From: Ktedonobacterales bacterium
GTDB taxonomy: Bacteria; Chloroflexota; Ktedonobacteria; Ktedonobacterales; JADMIN01
Direction of reading: 5' to 3'
NCBI GenBank assembly: GCA_030167145.1
Contig: CP126532.1
Location: 1,620,001-1,652,000, forward strand
Length of the DNA: 32,000 bases
The notes under the pieces were generated by a model. It was not told where the DNA came from. It ran no database searches and worked only from the letters and a program-made list of their open reading frames with translations. The position numbers and the translations under genes were made by a program. Shown piece by piece: positions 7,729 through 32,000 of this stretch; within the stretch, counting starts at the first letter, position 1; the number at the start of each line of letters is the position of its first letter.

Positions 7729-8931
7729 ATGTTCGAGGGCGGCGATGCGGTGGGAGATGAGCGTTCACAGCCGGTGGCGGAGGTGGGACGGCAGTTTTTG
7801 CTGCGTTCGGGGATGGCATTTCTGAATCATGGCAGCTTTGGGGCGTGCCCACAGCCGGTCTTTGCGGAGTATCAGCGGTGGCAGCGGCGGCTGGAAGAGC
7901 AGCCGGTGGAGTTTTTGGGGCGGCGGCTGGATGGGCTGCTGGCGGAGGCGCGAGCGCCGCTGGCGGCGTATCTGGGGACGAGCGCGGAGGATGTGGTATT
8001 CGTGCCGAATGCGACGCACGGGATGAATATCGTGGCGCGGTCGCTGGCGCTGGCGCTGGAGCCGAGGGATGAGGTGTTGGGGACGGACCACGAGTATGGG
8101 GCGGTGGAGCGGACGTGGCGATTTCTCTGCGGGCAGCGCGGGGCGCACTATCGCAGCCAGCCGGTGGCGCTGCCGGTGACGGACGCGGCAACGGTGGTGG
8201 AGCAGGTGTGGGCGGGGGTGACGGCGCGGACGCGGGTGATCGTGGTAAGCCATATCACATCGCCTACGGCGCTGGCGTTGCCGGTGGCGGAGATCTGCCG
8301 GCGGGCGCGGGAGCGGGGAATCATCACGGTGGTGGATGGGGCGCATGCGCCGGGGCAGATGGATCTGGCGCTGGATGCGCTGGGGGCGGATTTCTACACC
8401 GGCAATTTGCATAAGTGGGTTTGCTCGCCAAAGGGGGCGGCGTTTTTGTATGCGCGGCGCGAACGGCAGCCGATGCTGGAGCCACTGGTGGTGAGCTGGG
8501 GGTGGGAGGCGCGGGAGCCGGGTCCGTCGGTATTTCAGGATTTGTTTGGGTGGATTGGGACGGATGATCCGGCAGCGTATTTGAGTGTACCTGCGGCTAT
8601 CGCGTTCCAGCGGGCGCACGATTGGGATGCGGTGCGCGCGGCGTGTCATGCGCTGGCGGGCGAGGCGCGCGAGCGGATCGCGGCGCTGACGGGGCTAGGG
8701 CAGATCTGCCCGGACGGGATGGCGTGGTGGGGGCAGATGTGCGCGGCGCCGCTGCCGCAGCGGGATGATCTGTCCGCGTGGGAACTACAAGGGCGGTTGT
8801 GGGAGGAGTATCAGGTGGAGGTTCCGCTGGTGGAGTGGCAGGGGTGGCGGCTGGTGCGGGTTTCGATTCAGGCGTATAACACGCCGGGGGATGTGGACCG
8901 GCTGTTGGCGGGGCTGACGAGGCTGCTGTGA
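7729..8931 (+). CDS. class-V aminotransferase (isopenicillin-N epimerase / cysteine desulfurase-like), PLP-dependent
   Basis: ATG at 7729 (start uncertain; the track ORF starts at 7657). FLNHGSFGACPQPV near the N-terminus. DEVLGTDHEYGAV, VVSHITSPTAL, DGAHAPGQ, and the PLP-lysine motif GNLHKW. Confidence 0.85.
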   Translation: MFEGGDAVGDERSQPVAEVGRQFLLRSGMAFLNHGSFGACPQPVFAEYQRWQRRLEEQPVEFLGRRLDGLLAEARAPLAAYLGTSAEDVVFVPNATHGMNIVARSLALALEPRDEVLGTDHEYGAVERTWRFLCGQRGAHYRSQPVALPVTDAATVVEQVWAGVTARTRVIVVSHITSPTALALPVAEICRRARERGIITVVDGAHAPGQMDLALDALGADFYTGNLHKWVCSPKGAAFLYARRERQPMLEPLVVSWGWEAREPGPSVFQDLFGWIGTDDPAAYLSVPAAIAFQRAHDWDAVRAACHALAGEARERIAALTGLGQICPDGMAWWGQMCAAPLPQRDDLSAWELQGRLWEEYQVEVPLVEWQGWRLVRVSIQAYNTPGDVDRLLAGLTRLL

Positions 8932-8980
8932 GGCAGAGCGATGGGCATTGGGCAAGGAGGGCATCGCGCCGTGGAGAGAG

Positions 8981-9011
8981 CGGACAGACAGGAATGTTTG
9001 TCCTACCATGG
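8981..9011 (+). repeat. REP-like element related to family C (GGACAGACA-GGAA-TGTTTGTCC hairpin), in a convergent gap
   Basis: 9-bp stem with one G.U pair on plus-strand RNA (8982-9003). The core cagacaggaatgt is shared with copies at 21062-21124. No U-tract, so terminator function is unproven. Confidence 0.6.
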
Positions 9012-9022
9012 CGTGACGCTGG

Positions 9023-9454
9023 TTATCGGGGGAAGACGCGACCAAAGCGGGCGACGAGACGCATGTGAGTGGCGAAGGCGTCTGGGGTGATGGGTTTGAC
9101 GAGGAAGTCGTCGGCGCCGGCCTGGAAGACGGCGATTTTGTCGCTGACGGTGGTGCGGCGGGTGAGGGCGATCAGCAGGATGCGCTGTGTGGCGGGGGAG
9201 GTGCGCAGGGCGCGGATGAGTTCGAGGCCAGAGCCGTCGGGGAGGTCTAGCTCGGTGACGACGAAGGTGGGCAGCAGGTGGCTGAGGGCGGCGCCAGCAG
9301 CCTGGCCGGAGGGAACGATGGCGGTGAGGAATTGTCCGGCGAGCGGCTGGGTGAGGGCCTGGGCGCTGGCGAGGTCGGGATCAACGAGGAGAATGGATGG
9401 CAGCGATCTTCGGATCAGACGTCCGCCCGCATCGTTGTAATTGGCTGCGCTCAT
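9023..9454 (-). CDS. stand-alone response-regulator receiver (CheY-like) protein
   Basis: ATG at 9454 chosen (start uncertain; the long track ORF to 9799 is rejected as an N-terminal extension). SILLVDPD, phospho-acceptor context VVTELDLPDGSG, LIALT, and conserved Lys in DDFLVKP. No output domain. Confidence 0.8.
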   Translation of the reverse strand: MSAANYNDAGGRLIRRSLPSILLVDPDLASAQALTQPLAGQFLTAIVPSGQAAGAALSHLLPTFVVTELDLPDGSGLELIRALRTSPATQRILLIALTRRTTVSDKIAVFQAGADDFLVKPITPDAFATHMRLVARFGRVFPR

Positions 9455-20720: not shown

Positions 20721-20795
20721 TGGCTCCTCGGACAGGATTCGAACCTGTAACCTTGCGGTTAACAGCCGCCTGCTCTACCGTTGAGCTACCGAGGA
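20721..20795 (-). tRNA. tRNA-Asn (anticodon GTT), CCA encoded
   Basis: Reverse complement is TCCTCGG-TA-GCTC-AACGGTA-GAGC-A-GGCGG-CTGTTAA-CCGCA-AGGTT-ACAGG-TTCGAAT-CCTGT-CCGAGGA-G-CCA. Cloverleaf folded by hand. 7-bp acceptor stem, GTTCGAAT T-loop, anticodon loop CT-GTT-AA. One G.A mismatch at positions 27:43. Confidence 0.93.
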
Positions 20796-21183: not shown

Positions 21184-22608
21184 TTAGCGGCTGCCCGCGC
21201 CGGTGAGCGTGCCGACACGCTTGGTGGCGGGTGCGGCGGGCGCGCGCTTGCGGAACCAGGTGCGGTACTCGCGATTCTCCCAGATGCTCAGGATCATACT
21301 GGCGTTGAAGATCGAGGAGTAGGTGCCGGAGGCGATGCCGATGAGCAAGGCCAGCACGAACTCGCGGATACTTTCGCCGCCGAAGAGGGTCTGCGCGGCG
21401 AGCACCAGCAACACCGTGAGCGACGTGTTGAGCGAGCGCGACATCGTCTGGATCAGACTGGTATCCACGACGGAGTTGAAGGACTCGCCAGTGCGGCGGC
21501 CCAGGTTCTCGCGGATGCGGTCGAAGACCACAATCGTATCGTGGACCGAGAAGCCGATGACGGTGAGCACGGCGGTCAGGAAGAGGGTGTCTACCTTGAA
21601 GTTGAAGAAGTGGCCGAAGATCGCCCACAGGCCAAGCACGACGAGGGCGTCGTGCAGCAGGGCGATGACGGCGCTGGCGCCGAAGCGGGCCGCCTGGCGC
21701 ACGCTGCCAACCTTGCGGAAGGCGATGGCGATGTAGCCCAGGATGGCGAGCGAAGCGATGGCGACGGCCAGGAAGGCGGCGCGGGTGGTCTCACCGGCGA
21801 TGGCACCGCCGATGACGTTCTTATCGAGCACGTAGAGCGGGCCGAACTGATCTTGCAGCTTGGTGATGATCTGCGGCAGCGTGTTCTTGCCCGCCGAGGT
21901 ATTTACCAGGTCGGTTTGGGTGTTGACCTGATAGATCTGGTTGTTCTCACCGAGCATGACGCTGGTGACGTCAACCGGGAAGGTCTGGGCCGTGGGCGCA
22001 GGTGTGCCGGTCGCGGTCGGCGTGGCGGTGCTCGTCGCGGTGGCCGCTGGCGATGCCGTGGCCGATGCGGCGGCGGTTGGCGTGGCGGACTGGCCGCTGT
22101 TGGTCGTGGCGGGTGGCAGATCGGTGGCGGGCAGATTTTGTAGCGCCGCCTCGACCTGCTTCGTGGTCACCGCGCTATCGAAGAGGAAGACGATCTGCGA
22201 GACCTGCTTGCCGCCGACGGTGATGTCGTAATCGGTCTTGACGATGTTCGCATTCGGCAGCTTGTATTTGGGGTCGGCGAGCCGCTGCTGGACGGTTGCC
22301 TCTTCGCTTGTGCCGATAGGTCGGCTGAACTGAACGTAGACATAGCGCGAGGGCGGAATGGACGCGCTCTTGATGTCGGTGGAGGCGTAGACCGAGGTGT
22401 CTTGCGCGTTGAAGGGCTTGCCAGCGAAGACGTCTTGAATCTGGGTGGGGGTGACGTTCTTGGTCTGGAAGACGATATCAACGGTGGTGCCGCCGGTGAA
22501 GTCAATGCCGACGTTGAGGCCCCAGAGCGCCAGCGCCAGCAGGCCCGGCACGATGACGATGCCAGAGATCAGAAAGAACCAGTAGCGGTATCGCGTCAGA
22601 TGAAACAC
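21184..22608 (-). CDS. secF: protein translocase subunit SecF, with an enlarged periplasmic loop
   Basis: GTG at 22608, 3 nt after the secD stop. N-terminus FHLTRYRYWFFLISGIVIVPGLLALALWGLNVGIDFTGGT. C-terminal core FGASAVIALLHDALVVLGLWAIF...GFSVHDTIVVFDRIRENL...VDTSLIQTMSRSLNTSLT. 474 aa against about 300-320 for typical SecF as I recall. Confidence 0.92.
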   Translation of the reverse strand: MFHLTRYRYWFFLISGIVIVPGLLALALWGLNVGIDFTGGTTVDIVFQTKNVTPTQIQDVFAGKPFNAQDTSVYASTDIKSASIPPSRYVYVQFSRPIGTSEEATVQQRLADPKYKLPNANIVKTDYDITVGGKQVSQIVFLFDSAVTTKQVEAALQNLPATDLPPATTNSGQSATPTAAASATASPAATATSTATPTATGTPAPTAQTFPVDVTSVMLGENNQIYQVNTQTDLVNTSAGKNTLPQIITKLQDQFGPLYVLDKNVIGGAIAGETTRAAFLAVAIASLAILGYIAIAFRKVGSVRQAARFGASAVIALLHDALVVLGLWAIFGHFFNFKVDTLFLTAVLTVIGFSVHDTIVVFDRIRENLGRRTGESFNSVVDTSLIQTMSRSLNTSLTVLLVLAAQTLFGGESIREFVLALLIGIASGTYSSIFNASMILSIWENREYRTWFRKRAPAAPATKRVGTLTGAGSR

Positions 22609-22611
22609 GTT

Positions 22612-24174
22612 CTATTCCTCCATCCCGCCGGACTTGCCGGTCGCATTGGCGCGGCTGGCTGTGGGGCTGTTGCCGTTGCTGACGTTGCCGACCGGCTCCA
22701 GGGATTCGTCGTCTTCGTCGCTCTCCTCGTCGTTCGCGCTGGCCGCACGCGCGGGTACGAGCACGGCGCGTTCGGGCTGGCTGGCCAGACGCGAGGTCGG
22801 GCGGTTGTAGCGCGAGACCGGCAGCGCCTTCAGCGGCAGGCCGTAGAGCGCGGGGTGATTGGCGACACCGGCGAAGAGCAGGACGTTCAGGAAGTTGCGG
22901 GTGACGGTCACGGCGGTGAAGAGACTGATGAGCACGCCGAGCGCGAGGTTGATGGCGAAGCCGATGATCAGCGTTGCGCCGAAGTTGCTGCCGAAGAAGT
23001 AGAGGATCACGCAGGTGATGAGCGTGGAGGCGTTGGAGTCGCGAATGGAGGGCCAGGCGCGATGGAAGCCGATGTCAATGGCGGCGGCCATGGTTCTGCC
23101 CGCGCGTAACTCTTCTTTGATGCGCTCGAAGATCAGCACGTTGGCGTCCACGGCCATACCAACGGTGAGGATGGTGGCGGCGATGGAGGGCAGCGAGAGG
23201 GTGACGTTGAGGAACTTGAAAATCGCGAAGAGGAAGCCCGCGTAGAGCAGCAGCGCGATGTCGGCGAGCAGGCCCGGCAGGCGGTAGTAGATCAGCATGA
23301 AGATCATGACCATCACCAGGCCGATGATGGCGGCGCGCAAGCTGTCATACAGCGCCTGCTGGCCGAGAGTCGGGGCGAGCTGGCGCTCGCTGGCGACGGT
23401 TAGCGGCAATGGGAGCGCGCCGTACTTGAGGAAGGAGGCGAGGGTTTGCGCGGCGTCAATATTTTGCAGGCCAGTGATCTGTCCGTTGCCGTCAATCTCG
23501 CTCTGGATCGTCGCCGATTCGATGACCTTGTTATCGAGGATGATCGTCAGGTACTTACCGATGTTCTCGCGCGTGTAGGTGCCGAAGCGGGAGCGGGCGT
23601 CGCCGGAGAAGGCGAAGGTGACGATGGGGCCGCCGCCCTGTTGGTCAATCTGCGCGGCAATCGAGTTGGGGTCGAGTTCGTCGCCGCGGAAGACGATTTT
23701 GAACTGGCCGGACTGGCAGGTGACGGTGCAGGTTTGTCCGGTCACGTCCTGGCCCTGCTGGAGTTGCTGCGAGCCGGTGTCAATAACGTACATCTGGCCG
23801 GTGTTGCCGAGCAGCGCCAGGGCTTGCTGGTCGTCTTTGAGGCCGGGAAGCTCGATGGTGATGCGGTCGCTGCCCTGCTGACGCACGACGGCGTCATTGA
23901 GGCCGAGGCCCTGGGAAACGCGGCGATTCACATTGTCAATGGTGGCCGACATCTTGGAAGGAATGTCACAATTTTGCTTGTCCTGCGGGCAGGTGGCCTG
24001 CAATGTGAGCTGGATGCCGCCGGTGAGGTCGAGGCCCTGGCCGACGGTCAGAGTGTTTGTGTAGCCCGCGAAATTGATGGTGGATTTCTTGCCGCCCCAG
24101 CCGATGTCCACCCAGAAGGTGCCCAGGGCGAGTAGTGCGATAAACGCAAGCATAATCCATGTGCGACGACGCAT
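22612..24174 (-). CDS. secD: protein translocase subunit SecD
   Basis: ATG at 24174 preceded by GAGGGAG. LDLTGGIQLTLQA, ITIELPG, YLTIILDNKVIESATIQSEI, TM core GLLADIALLLYAGFLFAIFK..LSLPSIAATILTVGMAVDANVLIFERIKEE, and RAWPSIRDSNASTLIT. Acidic low-complexity C-terminal tail. Confidence 0.93.
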   Translation of the reverse strand: MRRRTWIMLAFIALLALGTFWVDIGWGGKKSTINFAGYTNTLTVGQGLDLTGGIQLTLQATCPQDKQNCDIPSKMSATIDNVNRRVSQGLGLNDAVVRQQGSDRITIELPGLKDDQQALALLGNTGQMYVIDTGSQQLQQGQDVTGQTCTVTCQSGQFKIVFRGDELDPNSIAAQIDQQGGGPIVTFAFSGDARSRFGTYTRENIGKYLTIILDNKVIESATIQSEIDGNGQITGLQNIDAAQTLASFLKYGALPLPLTVASERQLAPTLGQQALYDSLRAAIIGLVMVMIFMLIYYRLPGLLADIALLLYAGFLFAIFKFLNVTLSLPSIAATILTVGMAVDANVLIFERIKEELRAGRTMAAAIDIGFHRAWPSIRDSNASTLITCVILYFFGSNFGATLIIGFAINLALGVLISLFTAVTVTRNFLNVLLFAGVANHPALYGLPLKALPVSRYNRPTSRLASQPERAVLVPARAASANDEESDEDDESLEPVGNVSNGNSPTASRANATGKSGGMEE

Positions 24175-24320
24175 GAATGCAGTCTCCCTCGCTATTCGTC
24201 CCGGGTATCGGCGGATTCCGCCCCATCACGAGAGCCGGCCCGGCGGATGCTTCCTCGCGCTGGAACGCGGGCGGTAGGCATCAAGTGCAACAAGTGCAAA
24301 CAGATACGATATTCAGGCGC

Positions 24321-24349
24321 AGTATAGCCGAGACCCTGGGGTGTGTCAA
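24321..24349 (-). promoter_or_regulatory. near-consensus sigma70-type promoter for secDF (TTGACA-17 nt-TATACT)
   Basis: Minus strand: tgtcaa at 24344-24349 gives TTGACA. agtata at 24321-24326 gives TATACT. The 17-nt spacer was counted by hand. The resulting 5' UTR of about 140 nt contains TTGCACTTG x2 (plus strand caagtgcaa x2, about 24281-24298). Confidence 0.55.
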
Positions 24350-24498
24350 ACGACTAGGTATCCCGTCGCGCCGCAATTTGCCTGAACTGGCGGGCTACGA
24401 GCCGTATTCGTGTGGGCGCCTTCCATAAGGGTCTACGCACAAAGACGCATGAGGGTGGCGGATGGCTACAAATGGGGCATATTGCCGTTTGCTTCAGA

Positions 24499-27400
24499 TC
24501 AGTGGGTGTCGGTGTGGCGGGGGGCGGCGGCAGGTACGGCGGCGGGTTCGTCTTCGGGCGCGGGACGCAGGTGCAGCGCCTCGCGGGCGATGAGGCCGTT
24601 GGGCATCTGGCGCAGACGGTAGGCGGTGGCGTAGTTGACGCCCTCGGCGAAGAGGTCGAGGTTGGGGCTGGCGATGACGAGGCCCATGCCCAACTGCTGC
24701 GCGAAGCGAATCACGAGGTCGGCGTTGCGCTGGTCCATGCGGGCGAAGGCTTCGTCGTGCATCAGCAGGCGCAATGGCGCGTTGGAGACGGCGAACTGCA
24801 TCGCTGCCGCCGTGAGCAGCAGCACATAGACGGGCACGCGCTGCTCGCCGCCGCTGCCGAAGCCAGAGACGGCGCTATCCCACGGACGGATGCGGGCGTC
24901 CACGTCGTCGGAGTGGAGCAGTGAGACATCTACCCAGCGGCGATAATCAAGCTGGTCTACCAGGGCTTCGACGGAGGCCTGGGCTTGGCCCTGCCCTCCT
25001 CGGAACGGCTCGGAGGGGCTGCGCTGCCCTTGCATCTGTTCGTCGAGCCAGCCCGCGAAGATGGCGGTAAGCTGGCCCTGCACGCTGGCGGGCATCGCGC
25101 GGCCATGCTCCATCAGCGCGGTGGCGATGGTGACGTGGTCGAAGGGGACATCGGGCAGGCGCGCGAGGCGCACGGAGAGCTTGAGGTAGAAGCGGGTGTT
25201 GCGCGCGAAGAAACGGGCGTGGGCGAGGCGTTCGTTCAGGCCTTCGATGATGCCCTGGGCGCGGACCAATTGCTCGACGAGGTGGCTGACGACTTCGCCG
25301 AGGATGATGTCGCGCACGACGCGGGTGACACGCTGGGCGAGGGTTTGCTGCAATTGTTCAATCGAAGTGTCGAGGAACGTGAGCAGCAGGCGGGTATCGT
25401 GGGTGCCCTCCATGCGCGGGGTCACGTCGAGCAGCCAGCCCTGCGGGGCGAGCGCCAGCTCGCGCTTGACTGGCGGGCGCAGGCCGAAGCGGTCATCGGC
25501 GCCGACCAGCGCCTGATATTCGGCGACGGCGACAAGAAAGCTATTCTGCTCGCGGTCGGCGGCGCTGAAGGCGCGGGGCAGGTCGTCTTCGAGGCGCTGG
25601 CGACTGTCGCGGCCACGCGTGAGGCCGCGGGCGTAGCGCACAGGGTCATCCACCTGGTTGGCGGGGAGATCAAGGCTATCGGCGACGGCGTTGAGCAGCG
25701 CGCCAAAAGCGGTGTTGCGCTTTTGGAGCTGCGCGTTGGCGTCGGCGGCGGTGGCGGCGTGTGTCTCGCGCGCCTGCTTGGCGGCCTCCATCTGGTGCAT
25801 GGCGATGCCGCGCGCCACGGCGGTCTGGCGGGCGCGCTCTTCGGCGGCTTTGAGGCGGCGCTGCAACTGGGTGATGCGCGCCTCCACATCTTGCAGGCCA
25901 GCGGCATGTAGCGCGCTGCGCGCCTGGTTCAGCAGGCGTTGCGCCTCCTGCACGTCGTGGTCGGTGGTGTCCATCTGGGCGCGGGCCATGCCGTAGACTT
26001 CGTATTCCGCGCCGTGCGATTCCTCGGCTGAGCGCAGGCGCGTATGCAGTTGGGTGAGGCGTGCGCGCGTTTCGCCGGCGCGAGCGCCGGCATCGGCGAC
26101 GGCCTGAGCCAGTGCGGCGCGGGCGCGAGCAAGGTGGGCGGGATCGGCCAGGGCGGGATAGGCGCGGGTGGTGTCGCGCCAGCGGTCGCGCTCATCCGCT
26201 TCATCGGCGGCGGCGTCTTCGGCTTCGCGGGCGGCGGCGGCGAGCTTGACCGAGGCGGCGTCTTCGGCTTCGCGCAGGGCGCGCATGTCGTTGCGCCGCT
26301 GTTCGATCTCTTCGAGCATGTGGCTGAGTTCGCTGAGGTTGCGTGCGCGCTGCTCGGCGGTCTGCGCGGCGGCGCGCTGGGCGCGCAGGCTGTCGCGCTC
26401 GCTTTCGCGTTGCGCGGCGAGGGTATCGCGCTCGCGGGCCAGCTCGTCGCGGCGGGCGGCGGCGGCGGCCTGACGGCGCACCACGCCGATCAGCGCTTCG
26501 GAGCGTTTGGCGCGGCGGACGGTGCCGGAGCGGTCGCCCAGACGATAGCGGCCATCGGGGCAGAGATAGTCGCCGCTGCGCTGTGGCTCCTGAGCGAGGG
26601 CGACGGAGCCGAAGACGGCATCGAGATAGCGGCGCAGGTCGGGGTGGGCGGTGGTCAGCACGGAGGCGAGCGAGCCGCGCGCTGGTTTGCCTGCCTGGGG
26701 ATTGGGCAGCAGCGCGTGCCAGTCCACTTCGTTGCCCAGCGCGGCGCGCACCTGCTCGATGGGGAGGCTCAGGGTGAGCAGGGTGAGGGTATCGAGATGT
26801 TCGAGCAGCCCTTCGATGGCCTCACCCCAGGGCGCGCCTTCGCGGGCGAGGTCCAGATGGCGATAGGCGGGGGCGCTCTGCTGATCTATCGCGCGCAGTT
26901 GGGCCAGGGCGCGCTCACGTTCGGGGGAGAGCGCGGGGCGCGGCTCGGTCTGCGTTTGGCCGATCTCGCGTTCGATCTCGGCTAGCCCGGATTCGATTTC
27001 GGCGATGCGGACCTCGTGGCGGGCGGCGTGGGTGGTGGCGGCGCGCACCTGTTCGTGGGCGGCTTCGATCTCGGTCTGGCAGGAGGCGAGCAGCGGCGGC
27101 AGGAGCATCGTGCTCGGTTCTTTGCTGGGCACATCGCCGATGCCACTGGGCCAGCGCTGGATCATCTTGTCCCAGCGAGTCCAGAGCGACTGCCGGATAG
27201 TCTGCACGGCGCGGACCGCTGCCTCTTGCTGCACGCGGGCGTCGCGTTCGCTCTGGCGTGCGGTGGTCGTGGCGGCGTGGGCCAGTTCGATGCGCTTGAC
27301 GTGGGCTTCCAGAGCGGTGAACTCGGCTTCTGCCGTGACCCAGGCGGCATGGAGCGCGTCGGCGCGCGATTGGTCGGCTGGCTCGGCGAGCAGGTGTTCC

Positions 27401-28740
27401 CAGGCGGCGCGCAGCCCTTCGGGCAGGCTGCCAAGTGCGTCATTGCCACGCTGGCGAAGTTCGCCCAGGCGCGTGACGGCGCTTTCGCGCTCGGAGTCGA
27501 GCGAGTGACGGGCTGCGGCGACGGCGCGCTCGGAGCGCTGCAAGCGTTCTTCGGCCTGGCGCAGATCGCGGGCCACGCGGTCCTGGGCATGCTGCGCGGC
27601 GGTGAGGGTTTCGTTGGCGCGGGCGACGGCCTGGACGACTTCGCCCTGGTGCAACTGCTGAAGGGCTTCTAGCTCGCGGCGGGCGGCGTGTTCTTCGGCG
27701 TAGGCGGCCTCTTCGTCGGATTCGGCCTGGCGCGCGCTGGATGCGGCTTCGCGCAGGGCAGCGTCGGCCTGATCGAGAGCGAGCGCGGCGTCGTCATGCG
27801 CCCAGGCGGCGCGCAGCCAGGAGAGCGCGCCGTGATGCAGCGCGGCTTCGTGGTATTTCTTGCGCGCCTCGACCACGCCCGCCAGGGTCGCGCGGAGCTT
27901 GGCGTATTCCTCGATGTCGTGGTGGATGCGCTGGATGCTCTCAAGGCCCTCCACGAGGCGTTCCAGGTGGGGACGGTCTACGACGGGAAGGAACTGGCGC
28001 ACGACGCCACTGGGGTCGGAGACGAGCGCGTCATCTACGCGCAGACCGAGCATACGATGCAGCACATCGCAGAGCGCATCGTAGCGGCGCTGCCAGTCAG
28101 CGCCTTCGATGTTGAGCAGACGGCGGGCGACGAGACGGTTGTAGTCTTCGCTCTGGCTGGCGTTGAAGACCGCGCCGCCGGTGTTGATCAGCGTGTCGTT
28201 GGCGGCGCGGAATTGCGGCATTTCGAGCGGCGTGTGCCCCTTGGGGGTGATGTCGAGGAAGGCGACCTGCTCCAGGCTGGCGGGCAGCGCGTAGTAGAAG
28301 GGATGGGCGGAGTTGGGAGTGGCCAGTGCGGCGGAGCCGTAGACCCAGCGGCCTTCGCCCTCATGTTCGATCTCGGCGGCGCAGTAGCCGACGGTGCGCT
28401 GACGCCGCCAGCCCTTGTTGGGGCGGTCTATGCCGTGGGGATCGAAGAAGAGGATGGTGTTGCTGAGCGTGCGCTTGCTGGTGCGACCACCTTCGCGGGC
28501 GGCGAGGTTGAATTGCTTGCCCTGCACGGGGAAGAGCGCCCAGTCGAGGGCGTCGAGGATCAGCGATTTGCCGGAGCCGTTTTCGCCGATGATGGCGAGC
28601 ATGTCGCCCATGACATCGAGAATGGCGTTCTCGTGGCCGTGCCAGTTGACGAGCCGGATGCGGCGAATCCAGGCGCGGCCCGGACCTTTGCCGTTCGGTC
28701 TGCTCGTGCCGTTGGCTCCGTTGCGGGCGCTGGCGCTCAT
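24499..28740 (-). CDS. SMC-like ATPase of the MukB/MksB/JetC type (1413 aa)
   Basis: ATG at 28740 preceded by GAAGGAGG; it overlaps the upstream stop as ATGA. N-terminal head IRRIRLVNWHGHENAILDVMGDMLAIIGENGSGKSLILDALDWALF (Walker A). Very long Ala/Arg/Glu-rich coiled-coil arms. A central globular hinge-like block is encoded near 26480-26830 (...SVALAQEPQRSGDYLCPDGRYRLGDRSGTVRRAKRSEALIGVVRRQ...). C-terminal head LDYRRWVDVSLL...GFGSGGEQRVPVYVLLL...LRLLMHDEAFARMD...LVIASP. This parallels E. coli MukB (LDYRNYLEMEV...STGEA...LLFLDEAARLD...IIAAP) as I recall it. Confidence 0.85.
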   Translation of the reverse strand: MSASARNGANGTSRPNGKGPGRAWIRRIRLVNWHGHENAILDVMGDMLAIIGENGSGKSLILDALDWALFPVQGKQFNLAAREGGRTSKRTLSNTILFFDPHGIDRPNKGWRRQRTVGYCAAEIEHEGEGRWVYGSAALATPNSAHPFYYALPASLEQVAFLDITPKGHTPLEMPQFRAANDTLINTGGAVFNASQSEDYNRLVARRLLNIEGADWQRRYDALCDVLHRMLGLRVDDALVSDPSGVVRQFLPVVDRPHLERLVEGLESIQRIHHDIEEYAKLRATLAGVVEARKKYHEAALHHGALSWLRAAWAHDDAALALDQADAALREAASSARQAESDEEAAYAEEHAARRELEALQQLHQGEVVQAVARANETLTAAQHAQDRVARDLRQAEERLQRSERAVAAARHSLDSERESAVTRLGELRQRGNDALGSLPEGLRAAWEHLLAEPADQSRADALHAAWVTAEAEFTALEAHVKRIELAHAATTTARQSERDARVQQEAAVRAVQTIRQSLWTRWDKMIQRWPSGIGDVPSKEPSTMLLPPLLASCQTEIEAAHEQVRAATTHAARHEVRIAEIESGLAEIEREIGQTQTEPRPALSPERERALAQLRAIDQQSAPAYRHLDLAREGAPWGEAIEGLLEHLDTLTLLTLSLPIEQVRAALGNEVDWHALLPNPQAGKPARGSLASVLTTAHPDLRRYLDAVFGSVALAQEPQRSGDYLCPDGRYRLGDRSGTVRRAKRSEALIGVVRRQAAAAARRDELARERDTLAAQRESERDSLRAQRAAAQTAEQRARNLSELSHMLEEIEQRRNDMRALREAEDAASVKLAAAAREAEDAAADEADERDRWRDTTRAYPALADPAHLARARAALAQAVADAGARAGETRARLTQLHTRLRSAEESHGAEYEVYGMARAQMDTTDHDVQEAQRLLNQARSALHAAGLQDVEARITQLQRRLKAAEERARQTAVARGIAMHQMEAAKQARETHAATAADANAQLQKRNTAFGALLNAVADSLDLPANQVDDPVRYARGLTRGRDSRQRLEDDLPRAFSAADREQNSFLVAVAEYQALVGADDRFGLRPPVKRELALAPQGWLLDVTPRMEGTHDTRLLLTFLDTSIEQLQQTLAQRVTRVVRDIILGEVVSHLVEQLVRAQGIIEGLNERLAHARFFARNTRFYLKLSVRLARLPDVPFDHVTIATALMEHGRAMPASVQGQLTAIFAGWLDEQMQGQRSPSEPFRGGQGQAQASVEALVDQLDYRRWVDVSLLHSDDVDARIRPWDSAVSGFGSGGEQRVPVYVLLLTAAAMQFAVSNAPLRLLMHDEAFARMDQRNADLVIRFAQQLGMGLVIASPNLDLFAEGVNYATAYRLRQMPNGLIAREALHLRPAPEDEPAAVPAAAPRHTDTH
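24993..25025. repeat. family-D REP-like element copy embedded in-frame in the SMC-like CDS
   Basis: gccctcc-tcggaacggctc-ggaggggctgcgct against intergenic gcccctct-tcggaacggctc-agaggggctgcgct (20903-20936). About 31 of 34 nt are identical, with an identical 12-nt loop and changed but still pairing stems. It encodes ...QRSPSEPFRGGQ... just before the C-terminal head. Confidence 0.7.
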
Positions 28741-29576
28741 GCGTCGCCTCCTTCGGGGTTCAACTCGTCATGGGTGACGAGGCCAGCGGGCGGCAGGAAG
28801 CGGTCTATCAGGTCGGTAAATTCGTAGACGCCGCCGAATTCGCGGTCATCCAGTTTGTAGCGCTCGTCAGCGCGCTGGCGGTCGTCGGCGCCGATGCGGC
28901 GTAGGAGGCGGTAGCGCTCGAAGGCGGCGAACGCCTGGTAGAAGGCGCGCTGGTTGGCGCGCACGCGCTGCGCCGCGCCCATGCGCTGCGGTTGGGCGAC
29001 GGCGGTCTTGCGCGGTTTGCTGGCGACGCCCAGAGCTGCGGCGACGCCGTTGGTCTTCTTGCGCGAGCGGCTGGTGGCGGCGGCCAGTTCGGCGAGTTCT
29101 TCGTCGTCGGTGTCGTCGGCTTCGCCGCGCGTGGCGAGCGCCTCGTTGATGATCGCTTCGTCGAAGCTGAGCCAGGGCGACTGGCGCTGGCCCTCTTCGG
29201 CGACGTAGCGGAAGAGGTCGGCGAAACGGAAGGTGTTGGCGGATTCACCAGCCTCTAACAGGCGGACACTGCGATACGCGCGGATCAGGCAGGCGTAGGC
29301 GGTCTGTTTGCGGGCGGTCAGCTCAAAGATGTCGGCGATGCAAAACTCGCGCTGGCGGGGCGCGGTGGGCCAGTAGGCGCGCGCCCAGCGGCCCAGGCGC
29401 AGCTCCAGGTATGCGCCGAGTTCTTCTTCGAAGAAACGCTGCTCTTCGGGGTAGTGCTTGGTGAGCCAGGCGAACTCATCGGGGGCATCTTCTTGCAGGA
29501 GCGCGCTCTGCTCGATCAGCATGCGGCGGACGCGCCGCGCTAGCTCTTGCTCGCGTGCTCCCGTGTAAGTTGGCAT
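28737..29576 (-). CDS. MksE/JetB-like (KITE-type) accessory subunit candidate (279 aa)
   Basis: Position and size relative to the SMC-like gene, with a 4-nt ATGA stop/start overlap. The N-terminal pattern RRVRRMLIEQSALLQEDAPDEFAWLTKHYPEEQRFFEEELGAYLELRLGRWARAY resembles the 'W..L......v..yf..lGl.L......G.A.L' pattern I associate with MksE/JetB (DUF4194). The acidic stretch DDTDDEELAE is followed by a basic low-complexity insert. Assignment rests on synteny and weak motifs, not on a search. Confidence 0.45.
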   Translation of the reverse strand: MPTYTGAREQELARRVRRMLIEQSALLQEDAPDEFAWLTKHYPEEQRFFEEELGAYLELRLGRWARAYWPTAPRQREFCIADIFELTARKQTAYACLIRAYRSVRLLEAGESANTFRFADLFRYVAEEGQRQSPWLSFDEAIINEALATRGEADDTDDEELAELAAATSRSRKKTNGVAAALGVASKPRKTAVAQPQRMGAAQRVRANQRAFYQAFAAFERYRLLRRIGADDRQRADERYKLDDREFGGVYEFTDLIDRFLPPAGLVTHDELNPEGGDA

Positions 29577-29631
29577 AGAATGCTGCTCCGATGAGATGAT
29601 GAAAACACGTTATACAGGCCTGGCTTGTATT

Positions 29632-30534
29632 CTATCGTTCTTCGCCCGTTTCCGTATCAGCGGTAGGACCGTTCAACTGGGCGAAGAGGCCCAGGCGGTC
29701 TTGTTCTTCGATGTGTTGCCGCCGGGCTTCCTCGCGCCGAAGCTGCTGGATGCTCTTGGCGGGCGTGGCAAGCTGCTCAGGAGGCGGCACGCCCGCGTCT
29801 TCCATCGCCTTGCGGACGATATGACCCGCTTTGTGATGGGTGTGGTTGGCGTCGCTCTTGCCCTGGATGCCATCGCTGCGCAGCATTTCGCGGGCAAGCG
29901 CCGCGCGGAAGCCATTGGCGGCGGTTTCGGTGCTGCCCATGTAGTCGGCGATGTTCTGGTTGGGCTTCAGCCCCTTGCGCGCGGCGATGTCTTGCGCCGT
30001 CTCGCCATTGTAGAGGCCGCGATAGCCATGATCTTCGAAGACCGCGAAGTCGTCTGGCGTGATAACGCCCGCATCGCGCGCCGCCTTGAACAGTTCGCGA
30101 TGATAGCGTTTGAGTTTGTCGCGCTCCTCGATGCGCAGGCGTGCTTCCTCGCGGTCCTCGGCCAGTTCATCGCGGCGCGTGCGAACGGCGAAGTAGGTCT
30201 GCCCCAGGGCGACGATCTCTTTGGAGGGGTCGGCGTTCTGGACAATGAGATAGCAAGCGTAGCGCGATAGATGCACGTCATCTACCGCGCGTTGCGAGCC
30301 AGAGCCAAGTTGCACCATATGCACCATGTGGTGCATATGGTCTTCCACAGGTTGTCCGCTATTCTTACACGCCTCTTCCGCCTTCTTGATGACATCCGTG
30401 AATTTCTGCCAGCGGCTGTAATCGAGGAGTTTCGCTAGCTCGCGGGCGGACCAGAATTCGCCGTCGGCATCGGTGTGCTTGATGCGTTCGAAGGGCGAGA
30501 TGCGTCCGGTTGTGGTGGTTGGGTCGTCTGGCAT
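29632..30534 (-). CDS. dinD: DNA-damage-inducible protein D (DinD/RhuM-like) homolog
   Basis: ATG at 30534 preceded by AAGGTGAG (track start GTG at 30543). Collinear motif matches to E. coli DinD as I recall it. [27 protein letters not shown] matches PFEEIK...G.[47 protein letters not shown] matches [73 protein letters not shown] and [14 protein letters not shown] also match. Confidence 0.85.
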   Translation of the reverse strand: [300 protein letters not shown]

Positions 30535-30600
30535 GTGGCTCACCTTTCATCATCGAGCATATGGCTGACGGTGTTTCGCTGGTTCGTGGTGGCGTGTGGG

Positions 30601-32000
30601 CTAGTCGCCGCTCCGGACGCCTGGCGGCGCATCGTGGTCGTTGGTGCGCCTGCCGCGCCCGAAGGGCCAGAGGCGGCGTCCCGGCTGCGATGCGGAAGGC
30701 GGCGGCGTGGCAGTGGCCGAGCCGAGCGAGCCAGTGGTGGGTGGGCGCTGTGGCGGAACGGGCGCAGAGTAGCCCTCTAGCGGGCGCGTTGGGCGCAGGG
30801 TGTTGGGGTCAATGGCTTGCAAGGGGCGCGTGATCTGCCCGGCATCGGGGTCCAGGTCTTCGAGCGGATGCGTGGCGGCAACCGGCGCGAGGACGGAAGC
30901 CGCCGATGCGGCGGTTGCGACGTGCTGGCTGCCGGGCGCAGGCGGTGTGCTGGGCGCGGCGGCCATGGCGGGCTGTGGGCGCGCGGAGGGAGCCGGAGCA
31001 TCGGCATCGGCCAGCGCGCTGAGCCGGTCCATTGCCTCGCGGGCGGTGCGTTTCGCATCGGCGTCTGCCTGGCGGGCAGCGGTGGTGGCGAGGAAACGAT
31101 AGTTATCTAGCTCCACCACGAAGCCAGGGCCATAGAGCCGTGCCTGGCTGGCCATGCCCGCGCCCGGCGGCTGGATGCGCAGCCCCAGGCGGCGCAGTGG
31201 GGCGCTATCACGCGGGAGCCAGAGTAGCGAGGCCAGCAGGCGCAGATCGTCCATGGATTCAAGATAGCGCAGGCCACCAGCGGAGCCAGCGGCGATGAGC
31301 CGCTCGACAAGCCGCTGGCGCGCTTCTTCTTGCTCGCGGACACGCGGGTCTTCGCCGGGGTTCCAGTCTTCGGCGGTGACGAGCGCGGAGGGCGGTGGCG
31401 GCGGCGCGGGACGGTGGCGTGGGCGCAGCGACTTGAGCCAGATGTCGTCGTCCACCAGCGGCAGGGGCGAGCCGCCATGCAGTTCGAGCCAGCGGTCGAG
31501 CCGCACCTGGGCGTCGCTCTGGGGGCGCTGCTGCACCCAGATGGCGGCGTGGATCGCGCCGGAGGCGTTCCAGAGGTACTGGCGCGCGCGCTGGGTGGCG
31601 TCCTCGCCGCCCTCGGCCAGATCGCGCGAGCGGCGCAGCAGCGCGGCGATGGCCTGGGTCTGTTGCAAGCGCAGCGAGATGGCGGAGTGGATGCGCTCGG
31701 TGAGGTCCACCAGCGCCAGGCTGATCGCTTTCGCGCCCTCGCGCCACGAACCGGGGCCGCTTTCGGCCATCAATCGCTCGAAGATGACCAGTTCGTGCGC
31801 GACATCGCGGGCGACCTGATCGAGTCGTTCGCGGCGCTCGTCTTCGGTTTCGCCGAGGCCGACGCTCCATTCTTCTTCGCGCTCGCGCAGGGTTTCTTGC
31901 AGGCGGCGCACGTTCTCGCCTTCGTGGCGTTCGTCGCGCAGCGCGTCCAGCCGCTCGCGCACCTTGGCCGCACCCTCGGCGGCGACGCGGAAGAACTTCT
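30601..32000 (-). CDS. kleisin-like (MksF/JetA-like) subunit candidate, 5' end beyond the right window edge, with a Pro/Ala-rich C-terminal tail
   Basis: The reading frame stays open from 30601 to the window edge: the in-frame triplets at 31963-31998 contain no stops, and the GTG at 31962 in the track is probably internal. It is first in the operon order large-small-SMC, as in mukF-mukE-mukB and jetA-jetB-jetC. No motif that I can verify by eye, so the assignment is by synteny only. Confidence 0.4.
   Translation of the reverse strand, partial: KFFRVAAEGAAKVRERLDALRDERHEGENVRRLQETLREREEEWSVGLGETEDERRERLDQVARDVAHELVIFERLMAESGPGSWREGAKAISLALVDLTERIHSAISLRLQQTQAIAALLRRSRDLAEGGEDATQRARQYLWNASGAIHAAIWVQQRPQSDAQVRLDRWLELHGGSPLPLVDDDIWLKSLRPRHRPAPPPPPSALVTAEDWNPGEDPRVREQEEARQRLVERLIAAGSAGGLRYLESMDDLRLLASLLWLPRDSAPLRRLGLRIQPPGAGMASQARLYGPGFVVELDNYRFLATTAARQADADAKRTAREAMDRLSALADADAPAPSARPQPAMAAAPSTPPAPGSQHVATAASAASVLAPVAATHPLEDLDPDAGQITRPLQAIDPNTLRPTRPLEGYSAPVPPQRPPTTGSLGSATATPPPSASQPGRRLWPFGRGRRTNDHDAPPGVRSGD

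Follow-up and report, generated by a model that had tools for sequence, protein, structure and literature searches.

A type II Wadjet-related SMC operon with no adjacent nuclease gene and a possible condensin function in Ktedonobacterales

The right end of a 32,000-nt stretch of DNA from a soil bacterium of the Ktedonobacterales (assembly GCA_030167145.1, contig CP126532.1, positions 1,620,001 to 1,652,000; the whole stretch is called the window here) carries on its minus strand a gene for a JetC-like SMC ATPase together with genes for a candidate KITE protein and a candidate kleisin, named below C, B and A, respectively. The best reading of these genes is that they encode a complex that descends from type II Wadjet or is its sister, and that this complex has a resident, vertically inherited chromosomal function in an uncultured Ktedonobacterales lineage. 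Stated more specifically, it appears moderately probable that the locus encodes a domesticated, nuclease-less kleisin-KITE-SMC condensin related to Wadjet II, which would extrude loops on the host chromosome as MksBEF and MukBEF do. At present A, B and C are annotated as hypothetical proteins or generic ATPases.

The genes and motifs of the locus are listed below, with coordinates in the window.

30601..32000, minus strand: gene A, candidate kleisin, represented by the 3' 466 of its 693 codons, the frame being open to the window edge
30646..30678, minus strand: RRLWPFGRGRR motif, residues 669-679 of protein A, conserved at the end of the tail
29632..30543, minus strand: dinD, intact (Bro-N plus DinD C-terminal region), between A and B, assigned by NF008573
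28737..29576, minus strand: gene B, 279 aa, candidate single-lobe KITE with a sub-threshold DUF2398 match
28737..28740, minus strand: ATGA overlap, shared by the stop codon of B and the start codon of C, read directly, with GGAGG 7 nt upstream
24499..28740, minus strand: gene C, 1413 aa, JetC-II-like SMC ATPase by its PADLOC JetC2 match

A first-pass annotation of the window had described a 1413-aa and a 279-aa open reading frame (ORF) and an upstream frame of at least 466 aa as three minus-strand genes in the order kleisin, KITE and SMC, with the 279-aa gene coupled to the SMC gene through ATGA. All of these frames and the overlap are present on that strand and the order A-B-C holds, but the genes are not contiguous: the locus consists of four consecutive genes, A, dinD, B and C, the intact dinD separating A from B. 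On the source contig gene A encodes a protein of 693 aa in full length (L001:6059-8140, L001 being the window's own locus among the numbered related loci) and starts ~680 bp past the window edge.

The SMC ATPase

Protein C contains each of the motifs that the first-pass annotation had pointed to. The Walker A motif GENGSGKS occupies residues 52-59 (28564-28587), the signature motif SGGEQ residues 1296-1300 (24841-24855) and the LLMHDEAF motif residues 1325-1332, with Walker B at 24751-24768, and LDYRRW is also present. The ATPase motifs are invariant in 46 homologues, down to 55% identity. A few homologues look truncated, such as P0080 at 1161 aa. A conserved central block at approximately residues 640-760 (about 26461-26943) fits a hinge in the sequence alignment.

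Comparison with curated models places C nearest to type II JetC. The best PADLOC model is JetC2 (E 2.5e-61, residues 184-1362), whereas JetC1 (E 1.2e-45) matches the N-terminal third only. The TIGR02680 model aligns collinearly with C, residues 52-1359 falling on model positions 31-1317 of 1356, at a score of 143.2 bits that lies under the curated cut-off of 462.85, and the Pfam AAA_29 and SbcC_Walker_B matches exceed the Pfam cut-offs. The MukB models fail (NF003422, 16.7 bits vs 699; Pfam MukB, 13.2 vs 23), and so do the Smc models TIGR02168 and TIGR02169 (42.4 bits vs 567 and 22.3 vs 729, respectively), which match coiled-coil stretches only. Matches to Rad50, RecF and SMC families are confined to P-loop or coiled-coil pieces, and a sequence search of the PDB with the C profile retrieved only Rad50 heads, at the Walker A region; the nvJET-II entries 9QE0 and 9QE1 were absent among the PDB matches of the A, B and C profiles.

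Judged by these alignments, C is a Wadjet/MukB-class SMC ATPase that is distantly related to type II JetC. This agrees with the Wadjet/MukB-type assignment made at first and gives it a nearest family. By the same model scores it is neither MukB nor a canonical Smc, and by the NCBI threshold it falls outside TIGR02680. Kinship with type II JetC also explains why C, as had been remarked, exceeds the size of type I JetC proteins, since the JetC2 and TIGR02680 models themselves have ~1356-1365 positions.

The candidate KITE and kleisin subunits

The 279-aa protein B had been proposed to resemble MksE/JetB, and this proposal finds weak support. A DUF2398 match (E 8.9e-4, residues 8-60 on profile positions 194-247 of 363) scores 18.9 bits in B against a cut-off of 26.9 and recurs, likewise below the threshold, in 40 of the 45 B homologues, where its best value is 3e-5. 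The PADLOC JetB2 match (E 0.015) is anchored at position 3 of 388, and both matches place the N-terminus of B at the start of a lobe. Only chance-level matches were obtained in a PDB sequence search with the B profile, and the hhalign comparison of B with the type I JetB of a Streptomyces plasmid was not significant.

JetB-II has 388 aa in the published nvJET-II structure, where its four winged helices form two diverged lobes in tandem, 5-205 and 206-388. Protein B is conserved over residues 1-150 and 200-272, two blocks with a variable acidic/basic linker between them, and because these blocks and the length of 279 aa correspond to the size of one type II lobe, B is read as a probable single-lobe KITE that would act as a homodimer. 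The gene call of JGI for B starts 18 codons late, giving 261 aa rather than 279 aa (the omitted part is 29523-29576, minus strand). Apart from a few that are truncated N-terminally, the homologues in the alignment share the longer N-terminus, MPTYTGxREQELARRVRRM, and GGAG lies 11 nt upstream of the B ATG.

Protein A is recognized by none of the family models that were tried. Pfam, NCBIfam and PADLOC assign no family to A or to its 72 aligned homologues; the DUF2397/TIGR02677 kleisin family fails in Pfam, PADLOC and NCBIfam alike, and a Pfam scan of the 73 family members at E values up to 10 gave no kleisin family and no DUF2397. A profile hidden Markov model (HMM) of A searched against 1.84 billion representative proteins retrieved only fragments of its own family, with no bridge to DUF2397, DUF3375 or MukF. 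The PDB sequence search with the A profile gave nothing, and hhalign against the type I JetA of the Streptomyces plasmid was not significant. The earlier suggestion that the upstream protein is MksF/JetA-like therefore fails at the sequence level by the test proposed with it, an HMM match to JetA, MksF or MukF.

The AlphaFold2 (AF2) model of A has a mean predicted local distance difference test (pLDDT) score of 73.6. Residues 1-95 fold into a domain of four helices that is taken provisionally for a winged helix, residues 135-373 form a helical bundle, and a winged helix (pLDDT ~95) occupies residues 445-560 towards the C-terminus; residues ~389-445, between the bundle and this winged helix, are conserved yet unstructured. 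In a PDB fold search with this model, the MukF chain 9gm7_C ranked first (E 0.02, probability 0.38, not significant), and MukF chains recur lower in the ranking. The predicted domain plan fits the MukF and JetA kleisins, and pairwise identities of A and C are correlated with r 0.98. Gene order, this co-evolution and the predicted fold suggest that A is a kleisin.

The last ~130 aa of A (residues 560-693) form a hypervariable, Pro/Ala-rich tail with a pLDDT <50, unalignable up to a motif at its very end, RRxWP[F/L]x(1-5)G(R)RR. Among 73 homologues, W672 of this motif is kept by 70, R670 by 68 and R678 by 67, the deepest clade included. In sequence, the motif looks like a docking peptide on a tether; to our knowledge, no equivalent is known in MukF or JetA.

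Inheritance, selection and gene unlinking

Related loci were collected from GTDB species genomes (47), from metagenomes (36) and by exact-protein look-up (five). Every homologue of A, B or C that was retrieved belongs to Ktedonobacterales or to a metagenome-assembled genome of Ktedonobacteria. Eight genomes with complete A, B, C and SecD, which make 28 pairs, were used to compare the complex with this housekeeping protein. Averaged over these pairs, A is 77.6% identical, B 81.0%, C 77.3% and SecD 67.7%, and the identities of A, B and C follow those of SecD with r 0.97, 0.95 and 0.97, respectively. The median ratio of nonsynonymous to synonymous substitution rates (dN/dS) is 0.22 for both A and B, 0.23 for C and 0.31 for SecD; the closest pair gives 0.078, 0.072, 0.061 and 0.164 for A, B, C and SecD, respectively.

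The genes do not always remain together. Across the lineage, three stages of unlinking are seen: the operon beside secDF, B-C without A, and three unlinked genes. Gene A is separated from B-C in several genomes, and in a deeper clade, with C at about 55-59% identity, solitary copies were seen of C in seven loci, of A in two and of B in at least one. Those flanks of the unlinked genes that were read hold ordinary chromosomal genes, for instance IF3, pentose-phosphate, pantothenate and permease genes. The complex is thus inherited vertically, is under purifying selection and undergoes gene unlinking. Because the genes descend vertically, are more constrained than SecD and survive after being unlinked, a host function is favored, and since in the deeper clade A, B and C stand alone among housekeeping genes, a mobile defense cassette would not be expected. 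Wadjet itself has been described as sporadic and rapidly diversifying (bioRxiv 10.1101/2025.03.10.642339).

The missing nuclease and the inserted genes

No JetD, Toprim, DUF2399, DUF2220 or DUF3322 gene was found in 42 kb, that is, in the window plus 10 kb past its edge, and the nuclease gene is therefore not adjacent to the SMC operon. The first reading, that no JetD/MksG gene follows the SMC gene, is thereby extended to the 10 kb past the window edge. Clustering of flanking ORFs was carried out for 53 loci (for the 36 metagenome loci, a tblastn search was limited to A, B, C and DinD) and revealed no conserved fourth gene, A, B, C, SecD and SecF being the only widely common real genes. The gene-neighborhood comparison that the first-pass annotation had recommended hence gives the same answer. 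Downstream of the operon lie secDF or variable genes, insertions in the spacers are sporadic, and no Mre11/SbcD-type nuclease is linked to A-B-C.

The dinD gene had been put forward as a possible alternative partner of the complex. It matches NF008573, the model of Escherichia coli DinD, over its full length and above the curated cut-off (335.8 bits, cut-off 242, E 2.1e-100), contains a Bro-N domain, is also detected by PADLOC as PDC-S13 (E 1.7e-99) and probably starts at the ATG at 30534, which gives 300 aa. Unlike that of E. coli, it lies inside an SMC operon in a Chloroflexota genome and is not conserved with that operon: a dinD gene occurs just upstream of B in 6 of ~90 loci (L001, L028, L039, L040, L046 and L091). 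In L039 it is disrupted, being split across frames with its middle missing. Between loci in which A, B and C share 75-82% identity, dinD reaches 52-72%. As a system partner dinD is rejected for this sporadic occurrence, disruption and greater divergence; it is a later insertion, a passenger in the A-B spacer and no subunit.

The A-B spacer is an insertion site, since it has received dinD in six loci and a PQQ-like beta-propeller protein in four other genomes. Insertions in the A-B spacer (29577-30600) and in the C-secD spacer (24175-24498) differ from genome to genome (L008, L017, L027, L028, L037, L039, L040, L046 and L091) and include PadR-type genes; in L017, a 731-aa DUF262/GmrSD-like putative type IV restriction enzyme is encoded between C and secD. 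The beta-propeller membrane protein (f38) and the other spacer genes were rejected as effectors, being sporadic and not nuclease-like. HicA/HicB toxin-antitoxin genes (8783-9210) lie directly downstream of a stand-alone C in L004, and in the genome of the window a HicA gene is located ~10 kb to the left of the operon (L001 24217-24242; ~14500 in the window).

Comparison with known SMC systems

Wadjet is also known by the synonym EptABCD. With its type II form (JetABCD-II, as in nvJET-II of Neobacillus vireti) the locus shares an SMC protein in the ~1350-1400 aa range with a full-length JetC2/TIGR02680 alignment, the order kleisin, KITE and SMC (jetA-jetB-jetC) and a weak DUF2398 signal in the second gene. 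It differs from type II Wadjet in that no JetD gene (DUF2399/TIGR02679) is found in the window or the 10 kb past its edge, in that B, at 279 aa, has the size of one lobe and is no tandem KITE like the 388-aa nvJetB, in that A has no DUF2397 match and C reaches 143 bits against the TIGR02680 cut-off of 462.85, and in that its inheritance is vertical and its evolution slow, where Wadjet is sporadic and fast-evolving.

MksBEF and MukBEF likewise have three subunits, no nuclease and a chromosomal location, and MukF is the best PDB fold match of A. The features of an MksBEF-type condensin SMC (Walker A, signature, Walker B, coiled coils and hinge) are all recognizable in C. In contrast to MksBEF/MukBEF, no MukB, MukE, MukF, DUF3375 or DUF4194 model is matched, and C lies closer to the branch of type II than to that of type I and Mks. 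SMC heads homologous to C also occur in type I Wadjet (DUF3375, DUF4194, JetC1 and DUF3322/DUF2220), which has a JetC of only ~1100 aa, other partner families and a JetD in canonical loci, as on the Streptomyces plasmid. By curated models, the locus belongs to none of Wadjet II, MukBEF and Smc-ScpAB.

Full-length C as a query found nothing in the plasmid collection, while its C-terminal head gave SMC-like matches, and the three that were examined are type I or type I-like loci. One locus, L055 on an Agathobacter rectalis plasmid (NZ_CP143948.1, 3747-9339), encodes a type I JetA, a DUF4194 protein and an SMC protein, followed by a carbonic anhydrase gene and no JetD. Nuclease-less relatives of Wadjet are already known as a class (MksBEF, MukBEF and the Agathobacter plasmid type I JetABC), and the general idea is not new; descent of MksBEF and MukBEF from Wadjet through loss of the nuclease has been proposed (bioRxiv 10.1101/2025.03.10.642339). 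What sets this case apart is the fixation and vertical inheritance of the complex across a whole lineage, with stepwise unlinking of its genes, and, as we infer, its position on the type II branch, where a JetC-II-like motor appears to be combined with a single-lobe KITE and an unrecognizable kleisin.

Proposed function and alternative explanations

A working mechanism can be drawn by analogy with MukBEF, MksBEF and nvJET-II; in it, the roles of kleisin and KITE, the stoichiometry, the extrusion of loops and the chromosome as target are inferences. C would dimerize through its hinge and its ATP-engaged heads. A, acting as the kleisin, would hold one C by the head through its C-terminal winged helix and the other C by the neck through its N-terminal and helical part, and its N-terminal domain would probably pair two motor units, while the stretch at ~389-445 would carry a homodimer of B. 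ATP hydrolysis would power the extrusion of DNA loops on the host chromosome, and the DNA would stay uncut because there is no JetD. The RRxWPF...GRR motif of the A tail may recruit a loader or partner. The complex might also replace Smc-ScpAB in this clade. A canonical Smc probe run against 1.16 Mb of sequence from the lineage, which does not speak for whole genomes, recovered gene C only. A literature search for condensins in Ktedonobacteria found nothing.

Of the two options that the first-pass annotation had left for this locus, the nuclease-less condensin is preferred by the comparative data, namely the co-evolution with SecD and the dN/dS values. Several points nevertheless weigh against a condensin of this kind. 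Its chromosomal role is deduced solely from evolutionary behavior, that is, vertical inheritance, constraint and dispersal of the genes. The kleisin assignment of A has no sequence support and its fold match is insignificant; the DUF2398 match of B stays under the Pfam threshold, and the AF2 model of B, with a mean pLDDT of 48, is too poor for a fold search. As the genes of the complex become unlinked in the lineage, a JetD-like gene could sit elsewhere in the genome, the search having covered the locus. Furthermore, defense-type genes adjoin the operon in some genomes: dinD (PADLOC candidate PDC-S13), the DUF262/GmrSD-like gene of L017 and HicAB of L004.

These last points also feed an alternative that is possible but rather unlikely, in which the complex still provides immunity against plasmids or phages, either as a JetABC core with its effector encoded elsewhere (an unlinked JetD, or some protein that docks on the conserved motif of the A tail) or by cut-free silencing through compaction. 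Silencing of foreign DNA by compaction has been proposed for Smc5/6. The nearest recognizable family of C is a plasmid-restriction SMC, the separation of the genes in part of the lineage makes an unlinked nuclease conceivable, defense-type genes lie beside or inside the operon in several genomes, and the conserved motif at the C-terminus of the long flexible A tail resembles a docking peptide. Against it, the distribution is not patchy and bears no signs of transfer, and A, B and C track SecD at a rate of evolution below that of SecD, which is contrary to the rapid diversification described for Wadjet. Nor is any candidate effector conserved in the 53 clustered loci, dinD being sporadic and decaying.

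An assignment of C to repair ATPases of the SbcC/RecN/Rad50 type, or to some other ATPase, with A and B as lineage-specific accessories that are neither kleisin nor KITE, is improbable. It would account for the want of any detectable relative of A outside the clade, for the Rad50 heads as the only PDB sequence matches of the C profile, at the Walker A region, and for a DNA-damage gene, dinD, inside the operon in six loci. It is at odds with the end-to-end alignment of C to JetC2 and TIGR02680, which takes in the coiled coils and the hinge and next to which the Rad50, RecF and SMC matches amount to P-loop or coiled-coil pieces; with the repeated matches of B to the JetB2 family and the MukF-like domain plan of A; and with the lack of a linked Mre11/SbcD-type nuclease. 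Least credible by far is a decaying, non-functional remnant of a Wadjet system that has lost jetD. The absence of the nuclease, the insertions in the spacers and a few seemingly truncated homologues (such as P0080, 1161 aa) point that way, while dN/dS values of about 0.06-0.23, below those of SecD, ATPase motifs unchanged in 46 sequences down to 55% identity and the persistence of the genes even once unlinked are hard to reconcile with decay.

A further-reaching proposal is tentative and falls somewhat short of probable: this lineage may independently have turned a Wadjet-II-type plasmid-restriction motor into a housekeeping chromosome folder, with the nuclease lost, a single-lobe KITE that is either ancestral to the tandem or reduced from it, and a kleisin diverged past recognition. 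Were this true, the lineage would be a living parallel to the proposed route from Wadjet to MukBEF and MksBEF by nuclease loss. The origin of MukBEF/MksBEF is an open question, and the lineage would provide another case, independent of the first and situated in the type II branch; comparison of its unlinking stages could reveal the changes that accompany a switch from plasmid cutting to chromosome management. A type II-related single-lobe KITE, a kleisin candidate without relatives among 1.84 billion proteins and a testable tail motif make the complex worth studying.

Neighboring genes and other features of the window

The features that follow gene C are listed below.

24321..24349, minus strand: TTGACA-17-TATACT, sigma-70-like promoter match, 11/12 positions matched
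22612-24174, minus strand: secD (Pfam)
21184-22608, minus strand: secF (Pfam)
20721-20795, minus strand: tRNA-Asn(GTT), downstream of secF, the sole Rfam or ARAGORN match in the window

The 324-bp gap between C and secD (24175-24498) with its promoter-like site, and secDF beyond it, are as the first-pass annotation had described them, Pfam naming both secD and secF. The site is the only promoter-like one in 24000-32000, where shuffled sequence yields a mean of 0.7, making it a good match and no statistical outlier. Probably secDF are transcribed from this site, at which the SMC operon would end. From the site to the secD start codon there are ~145 nt (24175-24320, minus strand), a possible secD leader in which no Rfam family was matched.

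The secD and secF genes are syntenic downstream neighbors and context outside the system, with secD 3' of gene C in 18 related loci. In many genomes a di-iron protein gene upstream of the operon and secDF downstream of it form a stable synteny. In the 10 kb past the window edge there are a 103-aa ORF, a lipoprotein-like gene, the di-iron protein gene, a PadR gene and an ABC transporter gene, and the remaining genes of the window are ordinary chromosomal ones (a histidine kinase, GreA, an aminotransferase, two FAD oxidoreductases and the tRNA-Asn). The GC skew is positive in all 1-kb bins of the window but one (+0.02 to +0.43; -0.10 in the 18-19 kb bin), its sign is independent of gene strand and the cumulative skew climbs almost throughout, so that the baseline strand asymmetry is unusually strong.

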